Shown piece after piece: positions 41,109-43,433 of a DNA stretch of 64,000 bases. The notes under the pieces were generated by a model. That model searched no databases, was not told the DNA's origin, and saw only the letters and a list, made by a program, of their open reading frames with translations. Every line of letters starts with the position of its first letter. The first letter of the stretch is position 1. Location: assembly GCA_000002435.2 (NCBI GenBank), contig CM018792.1. One strand, given 5' to 3'. A program made the translations under genes and the position numbers. The DNA comes from Giardia intestinalis (lineage: Eukaryota).

Positions 41109-43433
41109 ATGCTGCTACCATCTTTGGCTCTGGTTCTAGCTGCTGCTCTCTCTAGAGTTTCCAGAGCAACTTCTAAGACAGCGTCTATTTCATATCCAGA
41201 GTATATTCCCGACGATGCCACATGCATTATTCAGCTGGATGGTACAGTTGATGTGGATACAGTGCTCGGTAGTGATGCGGTCTTCATGGGTATTCCTAAT
41301 TTCTACACTATTCCTTGCTTCTCTTCAGAAGAGTCTGAAGAGCCAGACATCGATGCATACGATACCACTGACGACAATGAATCTATGACCTATGAGGAGA
41401 AAGTTGCAGCGTTAGATGAGATCGCGGCGCGCGCGGGAGTTGTTGCGGTTTATCCAGATATTTCTCTATCCATCAAAGTGCCTGCTACTCTCTCTAATTA
41501 TACTGCCGCCCCCGCTGCTCAGTCAGGAAACTGCACCTCGCCTGCGCACGACTTGCTTTGGTACATAACTGGCGAGTATATTGCACCGGATAGCAAAAAG
41601 AAGATAAAAACGCTTGACATTAATATAACAGATGTTTGGGATAAAAGCTACACTGGGCAGAATACAATTATTCAAATGCTCTTGGTCGGTGGCGTTTCCC
41701 AAGATAATCAGGACATCTCCGACAGAATTGACCACACACTCTCACAAAATTTCACAACTGAGAATGCAGATGAAACGTATAACATGGGCACATCTCTAGC
41801 TGCTCTTGCTGTTGGGAATATATGTAACGATTATGGCGCGGAAGGCATATCTCCAGAATCTAGTCTCATCGTCATGGCATATAACCAGACAGACGTTCTC
41901 CTGTCCGAGCTGCTCCTTGGCCTGTATCCTGCAGCCTATCTCAAGTACCTGAACGAAACAGCATCAGATACAGATGCGAGTTACAAGACATCTGTAATAG
42001 CTACGTCATTCCTTCTTGACGGTTGCTCTAGTGGATGTTGTACTATTTTTGACGACATCCCCTGGCTATCTACTGCAATGAGCGACGGTGCCACAACTAA
42101 TTCCGCTGTTTACCTTTTCGCTACAAGCGACGAGGGTCATACAGATGCTAATATTTATCCATTCTTGAGGAGTCCAGGCGCAATAGTCGTGGGGGCAACG
42201 TCTCCTCAAGGAAAACCGGATGATGAGACCACATTTGGGTCTAACATAGTATTTTCTGTGCCCGTCAACGGAACAGTTGACAGCACAAATCTCTCTCTTA
42301 TAACAAGTACGACCCCCAGTGCATGTAACTATACTGACTCCGATCAAGCAACTGGCTGTTTGGTTGGGGTCAGCGGCCCAGCAGGGGCTCTCTCTATTGC
42401 TGCTGGAGCTGTTGCCATAATTGGACAGGTCATAAACAAAAACTACAACGTCCGCGACATCCTACACATCATGGCCGTCAGCTCCCAGACTGTCAACAAT
42501 AGCACACAGTTTGACGAAAAGAATGGATGGGTCCTCAACGACAACGGATTCTTCTTCAGCAATAAGTACGGGTTTGGCTTGCTCAATGTAACGAAGGCAG
42601 TTAGCATCGCCGAGAATTGGCCTGTGCTTCCAGATGCCACCTATGCAACCTTTTCCTACGACGACACCGAAAAACTAGATGCAGATGACTCTATAGATAT
42701 ACATATTACCGTCCCAGAAAAGAACATGATGCGCCTGGAAAGAGTTCAGCTCGCCCTATCACTCACAACCGGATTTGCTGGTGACATTGTCATAGATATA
42801 ACGTCTCCGGGTGGGACCACAAGTAGAGTTTTGGATGCCAGGAAGGCGGATACGTCAGACAGTTTCTCAGACACCGTCTATCTTCTAACAAACGCCTTCT
42901 TTGGAGAGGCTTCTCCTGGAGATTGGAAAATTACAATACACAATAAGCACGCTGTGTCCTCAGCACAAATTACCTCTGTCAAGCTCATGATTACTGGGGT
43001 TGCTCAGACAACTCACTTGACATTTGCCAAGTCGTACAACAAGATCTATTCTGATAGCACTGTCCATCTGAAGTGGAGGCCTGCAACTTGCGGTCTTACC
43101 TATGCATCCACTGTAGACTTCTGGATCACGGACCGCTTCCACAATCCAATTACGCTCATAGCTTCTAACGTCTCGTATAGCGAGTACGAGTACAAATGGG
43201 ACGCGTTCAAGATTCCTCTTGAAAAGGATACCCGTGGTTTCTTTATGATGGTGCCTCACAACACTGCTAACATCACGCCGTACCAATGGCTTCCGGGAAC
43301 CGTTTACTCGCCTCTTGTGCGCTTTCATTTGGCCGATTCAGAGCCTGCCGCCGGAGCCTTCATGCGCCCAAGCATAACAACGGTTGCTACTGTAAGTGCC
43401 ATTCTGGCGGCAGCTGCTCTAGTGCTCAAGTAA
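41109..43433 (+). CDS. Subtilisin/kexin-like proprotein-convertase homologue with a P-domain. The catalytic Asp, His and Asn appear to be substituted, so it is a likely pseudoprotease. It has a signal peptide and a C-terminal hydrophobic anchor.
   Basis: The N-terminus is MLLPSLALVLAAALS. In the furin-type alignment, ILDDGIE aligns with MLLVGGVSQ, so the Asp is lost. HGTRCAGEVAA aligns with MGTSLAALAVG, so the His is lost. WASGNGG aligns with FATSDEG, so the oxyanion Asn is replaced by Asp. GTSASAP aligns with GVSGPAG, so the Ser is kept. The end of the catalytic domain is well conserved (NGWVLNDNGFFFSNKYGFGLLNV...AENW). The P-domain is clear (ERVQLALSLTTGFAGDIVIDITSPGGTTSRVL...GDWKITIHNKH). 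The tail is SITTVATVSAILAAAALVLK. Confidence 0.6.
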   Translation: MLLPSLALVLAAALSRVSRATSKTASISYPEYIPDDATCIIQLDGTVDVDTVLGSDAVFMGIPNFYTIPCFSSEESEEPDIDAYDTTDDNESMTYEEKVAALDEIAARAGVVAVYPDISLSIKVPATLSNYTAAPAAQSGNCTSPAHDLLWYITGEYIAPDSKKKIKTLDINITDVWDKSYTGQNTIIQMLLVGGVSQDNQDISDRIDHTLSQNFTTENADETYNMGTSLAALAVGNICNDYGAEGISPESSLIVMAYNQTDVLLSELLLGLYPAAYLKYLNETASDTDASYKTSVIATSFLLDGCSSGCCTIFDDIPWLSTAMSDGATTNSAVYLFATSDEGHTDANIYPFLRSPGAIVVGATSPQGKPDDETTFGSNIVFSVPVNGTVDSTNLSLITSTTPSACNYTDSDQATGCLVGVSGPAGALSIAAGAVAIIGQVINKNYNVRDILHIMAVSSQTVNNSTQFDEKNGWVLNDNGFFFSNKYGFGLLNVTKAVSIAENWPVLPDATYATFSYDDTEKLDADDSIDIHITVPEKNMMRLERVQLALSLTTGFAGDIVIDITSPGGTTSRVLDARKADTSDSFSDTVYLLTNAFFGEASPGDWKITIHNKHAVSSAQITSVKLMITGVAQTTHLTFAKSYNKIYSDSTVHLKWRPATCGLTYASTVDFWITDRFHNPITLIASNVSYSEYEYKWDAFKIPLEKDTRGFFMMVPHNTANITPYQWLPGTVYSPLVRFHLADSEPAAGAFMRPSITTVATVSAILAAAALVLK

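Follow-up and report, generated by a model that had tools for sequence, protein, structure and literature searches.

The gene at 41,109–43,433 of the window (the whole 64,000-nucleotide stretch of Giardia intestinalis DNA that was analysed) is, by sequence identity, gSPC (GL50803_2897), and its product is probably best read as a non-peptidase homologue of the proprotein convertases, a pseudo-convertase that would act by binding in the secretory pathway. A non-catalytic role in this pathway appears to be the most economical reading because the fold is kept, the catalytic machinery is lost, and the gene is under purifying selection. gSPC belongs to a small group of proteins that increase specifically in late encystation of Giardia and move with cyst-wall cargo. 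The control of cyst-wall maturation will be viewed differently depending on whether gSPC cleaves or solely binds.

Identity of the Gene and Earlier Reports

The open reading frame (ORF) listing of the window has at this position, on the plus strand, an uninterrupted frame of 774 codons plus stop, the product of which is identical at 774 of 774 residues to XP_001706581.1/AAX12837.1 of G. intestinalis WB. In the literature, GL50803_2897 is SPC, which Davids et al. 2011 (Mol Biochem Parasitol 175:169) described as an “atypical proprotein convertase”, and the annotated name of the protein agrees with the name given to GL50803_2897; the statement “canonical catalytic triad... not found” has been in print since 2011, and a pseudo-enzyme role was raised, with a call for tests, by Faso et al. 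2013. The earlier note, made from the DNA alone, arrived at the loss of the triad and at the pseudo-enzyme idea, an observation that is correct in essence and already known. What is added here is the substitution, in G. intestinalis, of the Ser column as well; the triad is lost also in the gSPC of G. muris and of a more distant relative, and the gene is under strong purifying selection and lacks a dibasic processing site. The sequence case strengthens the published suspicion, and it sharpens an existing question rather than opening a new one.

gSPC is the sole S8/kexin homologue of Giardia. A MEROPS-derived table, from which non-peptidase homologues are left out, has zero S8 entries for G. intestinalis, and the “active Giardia subtilisin-like convertase” that had been suggested as a comparator turns out to be the same gene.

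Fold and Domain Architecture

The proposal of a kexin/furin-like S8 domain followed by a P-domain was borne out by profile alignments, a 32-sequence alignment, an AlphaFold (AF2) model, and Foldseek. The best PDB sequence matches are furin and Kex2 (E = 4e-22), and hhalign aligned the Giardia-type family with 26 active kexin-like proteins over 524 columns (probability 100%, E = 1e-61). In Pfam, P_proprotein (PF01483) was matched at residues 543–626 (E = 1.2e-13) and Peptidase_S8 at residues 185–474, the latter with 21.2 bits and hence marginally below the cutoff of 21.8 bits; the P (Homo-B) domain lies directly C-terminal of the S8 domain, in agreement with the furin alignment. The AF2 model obtained from a 9-sequence alignment had a pLDDT of 38; the model used here, from 32 sequences, has a pLDDT of 77 and a pTM of 0.82. 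Foldseek matched this model to Kex2 (E = 1.9e-33) and to furin (TM 0.86–0.87, rmsd 3.0–3.9 Å), and the subtilase alpha/beta fold, earlier described as “probably intact”, is predicted to be so. The alignments and the model were built on P0001; between it and the window protein there is one difference, D89N, located in an acidic loop that is disordered. The features are collected in Table 1.

Table 1. Positions in the window of gSPC, its domains and key residues, and the neighbouring C1 gene.
Feature	Position	Strand	Evidence
Whole gene, gSPC/GL50803_2897/XP_001706581.1, 774 aa plus stop codon	41109..43433	+	ORF, sequence identity, literature
Signal-peptide-like hydrophobic segment, about aa 1–20	41109..41168	+	Top hydrophobic 15-mer from residue 1; AF2 helix 3–20; putative cleavage site
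Prodomain-like beta-alpha-beta-beta-alpha-beta module, aa 37–116, with acidic loop aa 72–93	41217..41456	+	AF2, hhalign
Degenerate S8 (kexin-type) subtilase domain, aa 146–500	41544..42608	+	hhalign; Foldseek (Kex2/furin E about 1e-32, TM 0.86); dN/dS 0.03–0.08
V193, catalytic Asp column (furin D153, first D of D-x-G)	41685..41687	+	HMMER, 32-sequence MAFFT; L192 in hhalign
M226, catalytic His column	41784..41786	+	hhalign, 32-sequence MAFFT
D341, oxyanion-hole Asn column	42129..42131	+	hhalign, 32-sequence MAFFT
S422, at the variable x that precedes G-T-S, three residues before the nucleophile column	42372..42374	+	32-sequence MAFFT
A425, catalytic Ser (nucleophile) column; G-T-S to G-P-A	42381..42383	+	HMMER, hhalign, 32-sequence MAFFT
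P (Homo-B) domain, aa 501–633 (Pfam match 543–626)	42609..43007	+	PF01483; furin P-domain alignment; AF2 beta-sandwich, pLDDT 83–94
Lineage-specific beta-rich C-terminal domain, aa 634–745	43008..43343	+	Conserved in G. muris and P0039
“GAF[MFV]RP” spacer and hydrophobic C-terminal tail of 18 residues with a final K	43344..43430	+	Hydrophobicity, AF2, conservation
C1 pseudoprotease, cathepsin B/C-like (context)	47481..48377	+	PF00112, E = 1.5e-41; DPPI 1jqp alignment

The prodomain-like module, which hhalign aligns with the pro-region of active kexins, is modelled with a pLDDT of about 90 as strands 38–43, 65–69, and 111–116 and helices 49–53 and 95–106. At the other end of the protein, the lineage-specific domain has a weak Kre9_KNH match alone in Pfam (E = 0.35) and a low AF2 confidence (44–76), with a dN/dS of 0.02–0.05; its invariant residues are D670, H678, D698, and S734, and no His other than H678 is invariant in the family. 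Both the signal-like segment at the N-terminus and the hydrophobic tail at the C-terminus, noticed at the outset, are present, as judged from hydrophobic 15-mers and the AF2 helices 3–20 and 756–773. The strongest 15-mers of the tail start at 756–760, and the spacer and tail are kept in all six members of the family; the tail is taken to be a membrane anchor, either a GPI signal or a transmembrane helix followed by a single residue.

The Catalytic Columns

The Asp-His-Ser triad and the oxyanion Asn are absent from gSPC, where all four residues are replaced, by V193 (Asp), M226 (His), D341 (oxyanion Asn), and A425 (Ser). These equivalences are based on sequence and profile alignment and on DSSP landmarks of the model, not on coordinate superposition. 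The earlier note had read, by eye, that Asp, His, and the oxyanion Asn are substituted; profile and multiple alignments, when inspected for these residues at the catalytic columns, have V193 (or, in hhalign, L192), M226, and D341 there instead. V193 is the final residue of strand 187–193 of the AF2 model, M226 stands at the start of helix 225–235 (its ATG codon being invariant across four G. intestinalis lineages), and D341 comes after strand 333–338. In assemblage B, an Asp at residue 194 might be taken for a retained catalytic Asp; this was rejected, as the D-x-G register puts it on furin's non-catalytic D154.

The fourth column is where the earlier note has to be corrected. It held that the Ser is retained, so that three of four residues would be lost, in a protein displayed at the surface or in the secretory lumen, and it pointed to a second dead protease nearby. 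S422 does pair with the nucleophile in a 6-sequence MAFFT alignment, but this needs a 3-residue gap and is gone in HMMER, hhalign, and the 32-sequence MAFFT alignment, all of which place G423-P424-A425 opposite G-T-S. Moreover, G. muris has “GAS” at this place, which matches the motif without a gap and keeps a Ser at the nucleophile column. S422 as nucleophile was accordingly rejected; it ends strand 417–422 of the model, three residues upstream of A425, and helix 424–442 starts at P424/A425 with a pLDDT above 90. The column of S422 is variable in active enzymes (S, T, G, N, A, D, E, or K) and, although S422 is conserved within Giardia, it is Q in P0039, a metagenomic relative. The signal peptide and hydrophobic tail are indeed present and the C1 neighbour is dead, with its synteny kept within G. 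intestinalis; however, published work puts gSPC in the ER and the encystation-specific vesicles (ESV), not at the surface, and in G. muris, where the order is Rad52-gSPC-Metallophos, no gene of the C1 type lies within 10 kb. The combination of a kept Ser, surface display, and pairing with the C1 gene is largely refuted, and we regard it as very unlikely.

As for a substitute base, no invariant His was found across the family in the S8-like domain (residues 146–500). The only His of this domain that is conserved within Giardia, H453, pairs with a non-catalytic His of furin, that of “MQHLVV”.

Age of the Loss and Selection

In the order Asp, His, Asn, and Ser, the catalytic columns read V/M/D/A in G. 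intestinalis, M/L/R/S in G. muris, and G/P/T/G in P0039. The G. muris orthologue was missed by word-indexed searches (6, 8, and 28 matches) and was recovered by an exhaustive HMMER search. The loss of the triad is older than the split between G. intestinalis and G. muris.

One explanation of such a loss would be a decaying pseudogene, the function of which fades once catalysis is gone. The missing catalytic residues and the Pfam S8 score under the cutoff would fit this. However, the reading frame is unbroken in five lineages of Giardia and in the distant relative, dN/dS is 0.05–0.08 overall with a dS of at least 1 (four G. intestinalis lineages), and gSPC peptides have been detected by proteomics. 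The gene is maintained by strong purifying selection and is not a pseudogene, an idea that selection and expression data refute and to which we give practically no weight. gSPC combines two features expected of an S8 pseudoenzyme: clear homology with loss of essential residues, and maintenance by selection.

Probable Retention of the Prodomain

A whole-protein scan found no R-x-[KR]-R motif anywhere in gSPC, the sole basic cluster of which, KKK at 163–165, lies inside the S8-like domain. Hence, although a prodomain-like module is present, there is no (R/K)-x-(K/R)-R site at which it could be removed. Catalytic mutants of subtilases are reported not to autoprocess, and the prodomain of CspC remains uncleaved. 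The prodomain of gSPC probably stays attached because the protein is without a furin-type cleavage site and would be unable to autoprocess.

Does gSPC Cut?

The original published framing of gSPC is that of an atypical yet active protease, which would process cyst proteins in encystation and excystation with a nucleophile and a base of non-canonical type, placed somewhere in the protein. Davids and colleagues (2011) are reported to have seen gelatinase activity in zymograms of immunopurified, epitope-tagged gSPC, with the activity co-migrating and immunopurifying with the tagged protein; the serine-protease inhibitor AEBSF is also reported to have impaired encystation and excystation. If this reported gelatinase activity is intrinsic, gSPC is not a pseudoenzyme. 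In secondary papers gSPC is called “implicated in encystation and excystation”, and an SPC-type site has been noted in the literature in the cyst protein HCNCp. The conservation of S422 within Giardia and the invariance of D670, H678, and S734 in the C-terminal domain might also be cited in favour of activity. However, the four canonical residues are replaced, and replaced differently in each lineage, which looks like relaxed constraint at these sites rather than new chemistry; the S8-like domain has no conserved His, and S422 gives way to Q in the metagenomic relative. Moreover, zymogram activity in an immunoprecipitate can stem from co-purifying enzymes, given the 21 C1 cysteine proteases of Giardia in a MEROPS-derived table, and AEBSF is not specific to gSPC. 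On these grounds, an active protease seems unlikely.

Another possibility is that the reported gelatinase is intrinsic to gSPC, with a non-canonical catalytic site that lies elsewhere than in the dead S8 pocket. A candidate for it would be D670/H678/S734 in the lineage-specific C-terminal domain; across the gSPC family, no other invariant Asp/His/Ser set has a His. The chances of this are, in our view, very slim; if true, a convertase scaffold would carry a protease active site of a new kind. The pseudo-convertase reading has a consequence of its own: the reported serine-protease dependence of encystation would have to come from elsewhere, because all four catalytic residues are lost, the S8-like domain offers no alternative conserved His, the loss is ancient, selection is strongly purifying, and the prodomain lacks a cleavage site.

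A Proposed Binding Role in Encystation

Published proteomics detected gSPC peptides late in encystation only. Tagged gSPC was found in the ER/ESV, without secretion to the surface, and a second source also places it in the ESV. Of the earlier idea of a non-catalytic binding protein at the surface or in the secretory lumen, what stands, as the most economical reading, is a non-catalytic protein of the secretory pathway; the surface does not agree with the published localisation. In the 116-bp region upstream of gSPC, a CTGCAG and an AT-rich initiator were seen by eye, and no Myb2-type element, C(T/A)ACAG.

A mechanism can be envisaged in which gSPC, unable to autoprocess and without an R-x-K/R-R site, would keep its prodomain covalently attached, and the C-terminal tail of the prodomain would probably occupy the former substrate cleft. 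The C-terminal hydrophobic tail would hold the protein on the lumenal side of the ER/ESV membrane, where it would bind rather than cut. gSPC may escort cyst-wall cargo or serve as its scaffold; alternatively, it may be a regulator or a decoy for the genuine processing enzymes of cyst-wall proteins (cysteine proteases). Such a mode of action would be analogous to that of PCSK9 and CspC/CspA.

Comparison with Known Systems

With furin and Kex2 (MEROPS S8B), its best matches in both sequence and structure, gSPC shares the succession of prodomain, subtilase domain, and P-domain, as well as a signal peptide and a C-terminal membrane anchor. It differs in lacking the Asp/His/Ser triad, the oxyanion Asn, and the R-x-K/R-R autoprocessing site, and in having its own conserved C-terminal domain in place of the Cys-rich region.

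PCSK9 is a member of the convertase family that functions by binding, not by proteolysis, and its prodomain stays bound over the active site. It is a Foldseek structural neighbour of the gSPC model (6u2f). Unlike gSPC, PCSK9 keeps its triad, autoprocesses once, and is secreted, and its C-terminal domain is Cys/His-rich rather than a P-domain.

CspC and CspA of Clostridioides difficile are S8 proteins that have lost triad residues, do not autoprocess, and have an uncleaved prodomain, as is probable for gSPC. They are regulators of a dormancy-stage transition, spore germination, to which cyst formation would be the counterpart if the predicted role of gSPC is correct. However, CspC and CspA are bacterial, belong to S8A, and have no P-domain; they have lost two residues as against four in gSPC, and their pseudo-active-site residues are strictly conserved, which those of gSPC are not; their regulatory role was shown by experiment, whereas that of gSPC is predicted.

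The C1 Pseudoprotease Nearby

The earlier note had placed a second pseudoprotease at 47482–48377. This is a Peptidase_C1 homologue that has indeed lost its Cys and His, with the correction that its ATG is at 47481. Its catalytic Cys is replaced by Ser (CSGSW) and its His by Gln (GTQAV), the Asn being kept, and these substitutions are conserved in three lineages. The earlier note found two dead proteases in one neighbourhood unusual, but a functional link between them finds no support: two unrelated genes on the opposite strand lie between them, and, whereas the C1 gene is syntenic with gSPC within G. intestinalis, the flanks of the G. muris orthologue, 10 kb on each side, do not contain it, although the Rad52-gSPC-Metallophos order is kept there.

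The C1 neighbour, as distinct from gSPC, resembles Plasmodium SERA5, a papain-like C1 pseudoprotease reported to be a non-catalytic regulator. In SERA5, too, Ser replaces the catalytic Cys; the Giardia protein differs in having also lost its His, which is Gln.

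Fold and family

The window was assigned to Giardia intestinalis assemblage A, and its gSPC protein is 100% identical to XP_001706581.1/AAX12837.1 ("Furin/Protein convertase 2"); the same gene, GL50803_2897, is named "Furin precursor putative serine protease" in the literature. Since gSPC is GL50803_2897, the separate active Giardia convertase that an earlier note proposed as a comparator turned out to be gSPC itself. A table derived from MEROPS, with non-peptidase homologues left out, gives 11 S8 (subtilase) peptidases for Trichomonas vaginalis and 0 for G. intestinalis.

The kexin/furin-like subtilase and P-domain architecture proposed in that note is borne out by a Pfam P-domain match (E=1.2e-13), by furin and Kex2 as the best PDB sequence matches, and by hhalign, in which a profile of 6 Giardia-type proteins matched one of 26 active kexin-like proteins (probability 100%, E=1e-61, 524 columns); the Pfam S8 match is marginal (21.2 bits vs. 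a cutoff of 21.8). An exhaustive HMMER search recovered the G. muris orthologue P0038 (TNJ30157.1) and a metagenomic relative, P0039, which has 35% identity to gSPC, the same C-terminal domain and tail, and an S8-like domain that carries a long N/S/T-rich insertion. After these two, match strength falls off sharply (E=1e-38 or worse), and the further matches examined are active kexin-like proteins. Since P0039 also lacks the triad, the dead family reaches beyond the genus Giardia.

The fold, thought likely to be intact, is indeed retained: the AlphaFold model (pLDDT 77, pTM 0.82; pro-, S8-like, and P-domains mostly pLDDT 85-95), based on a 32-sequence alignment, has as Foldseek neighbours Kex2 (E=1.9e-33) and furin (TM 0.86-0.87, rmsd 3.0-3.9 A). 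The gSPC version used for the alignments and the model, P0001, has a single difference from the window protein, D89N, located in an acidic loop that is disordered.

Coordinates of the features (window positions except for the P0039 gene)
Feature	Position	Strand	Remarks
Single ORF	10568-26434	+	5288 codons, a quarter of the window
Upstream ORF	38095-40035	-	TTG start
Rad52 homologue	39967-40992
gSPC ORF	41109-43433	+	774 residues
gSPC codon 194	41688-41690
C-terminal domain with tail region	43008-43430	+	aa 634-774; beta-rich, family-specific domain aa 634-745, after the P-domain
Cathepsin B/C-like C1 homologue	47481-48377	+	E=1.5e-41
P0039 gene	3238-6150 on contig L007		JGI metagenome 3300010163, 9-kb contig; 970 aa, eukaryotic

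Loss of the catalytic residues

With alanine at the nucleophile column and the Asp, His, and oxyanion Asn replaced, all four catalytic residues are gone from gSPC. The last three substitutions had been recognized correctly; the Ser, however, had been taken as retained, giving three of four, whereas S422 lies on the variable residue that precedes G-T-S (Q in P0039). Pairing of S422 with the nucleophile occurs only in a 6-sequence MAFFT run, requires a 3-residue gap, and was rejected. The G. muris segment "SGASGALSIGAG" matches G-T-S-x-A-x-P-x-x-A-G gap-free. The model is concordant with the columns: V193 is the last residue of strand 187-193, M226 opens helix 225-235, D341 comes after strand 333-338, and helix 424-442 begins at P424/A425 (pLDDT >90).

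Residues at the catalytic columns (32-sequence alignment; HMMER and hhalign concordant)
Column	Active motif	G. intestinalis A	G. muris	P0039
Asp (first D of D-x-G; furin D153)	ivDdG	V193 (L192 in hhalign)	M	G
His	HGT	M226	L	P
Oxyanion Asn	aaGN	D341	R	T
Ser nucleophile	GTS	A425 (G-P-A)	S (G-A-S)	G

Codon 194 encodes Asp (GAC) in the assemblage B sequence L001 vs. Gly (GGT/GGC) in assemblage A and two other lineages. Asp194 restores "V-D-G", but it was rejected as the catalytic Asp because it aligns instead with the column of the non-catalytic furin D154, which lines the S2 pocket.

As for another catalytic site, no His is invariant in the S8-like domain across the six family members: H453 is conserved within Giardia only, its counterpart is a non-catalytic His of furin, and the family shares just one invariant His, H678 of the C-terminal domain. 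The four dead columns hold different residues in different lineages, which points to relaxed constraint there and not to a new active site. Judged from its sequence, catalysis by gSPC via the canonical route would be impossible.

Prodomain and C-terminal region

The signal peptide and C-terminal hydrophobic tail noted earlier are both present as hydrophobic segments, the first followed by a prodomain-like beta-alpha-beta-beta-alpha-beta module (aa 37-116) with an acidic loop. A scan of the whole protein found no R-x-K/R-R motif; the sole basic cluster, KKK 163-165, lies downstream of the conserved "WYITG", which marks the mature-domain start in active enzymes. Since subtilase catalytic mutants fail to autoprocess and the CspC prodomain stays uncleaved, the gSPC prodomain probably remains attached.

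The C-terminal domain, the conserved GAF[MFV]RP motif that follows it, and the hydrophobic tail of 18 residues, with K/R last, belong to the best-conserved parts of gSPC and also occur in P0038 and P0039. A Pfam scan of aa 634-774 gave no convincing match (Kre9_KNH, E=0.35). The hydrophobic tail could be a TM helix followed by a single residue, or else a GPI signal.

Selection, expression, and possible role

Purifying selection on gSPC is strong: comparisons among four G. intestinalis-complex lineages, with dS of roughly 1 or higher, give an overall dN/dS of 0.05-0.08, with 0.03-0.08 for the S8-like domain and 0.02-0.05 for the C-terminal domain. The overall ratio and the peptides detected late in encystation (Faso et al.) rule out a pseudogene. 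According to the literature, the gene is up-regulated late in encystation and its protein is confined to the ER and to encystation-specific vesicles, never reaching the surface, contrary to the cell-surface display suggested as one of two options.

gSPC most likely acts as a membrane-tethered convertase scaffold, occupied by its prodomain, that would bind cyst-wall cargo or modulate the real processing proteases, a mode of action that would resemble those of PCSK9 and the C. difficile pseudoproteases CspC and CspA. In a 2011 abstract, immunopurified gSPC reportedly had gelatinase activity and encystation was said to be AEBSF-sensitive; these are the main counter-evidence to a non-catalytic gSPC. 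A plausible alternative, because Giardia has about 21 C1 (papain-type) proteases, is that the gelatinase activity came from a co-purifying protease.

The reading of gSPC as a convertase that has lost its catalytic residues is correct in essence, and the feature is real but already known: the lack of a canonical triad was described in 2011, and the idea of a pseudo-enzyme was put forward in 2013. The additions made here are modest, namely, the Ser loss in G. intestinalis, a triad loss common to G. muris and a deeper relative, the lack of a conserved alternative His in the S8-like domain, strong purifying selection, the missing processing site, and a further case, P0110, in which the same four residues are lost. 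This 801-aa Trichomonas-type S8 and P-domain protein (metagenome/Logan, outside the window) has T/I/G/G at the four columns; its architecture is similar to that of the active T. vaginalis XP_001319004.1, whose catalytic residues it lacks. P0110 appears to be a convertase that became catalytically dead independently, in a different metamonad lineage.

Gene neighbourhood

The second pseudoprotease described earlier is indeed a dead C1 homologue, carrying Ser for Cys in CSGSW and Gln for His in GTQAV but keeping the Asn, although its ATG lies one base before the proposed start at 47482. Three G. intestinalis lineages share both substitutions, and the N-terminus has a hydrophobic signal-anchor-like segment. 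The presence of two neighbouring dead proteases, called unusual earlier, yielded no evidence of functional pairing. Two unrelated opposite-strand genes (Metallophos phosphatase and SIR2) separate them; the order Rad52-gSPC-Metallophos-SIR2-C1-SF3A2 is constant within G. intestinalis; and G. muris keeps Rad52-gSPC-Metallophos, with an MCM gene in the place expected for the C1 gene and no C1 homologue found within 10 kb of its gSPC orthologue.

For about 70 bases (39967-40035) the upstream minus-strand ORF runs into the beginning of the Rad52 homologue, probably because the ORF was called too long in this very compact genome.
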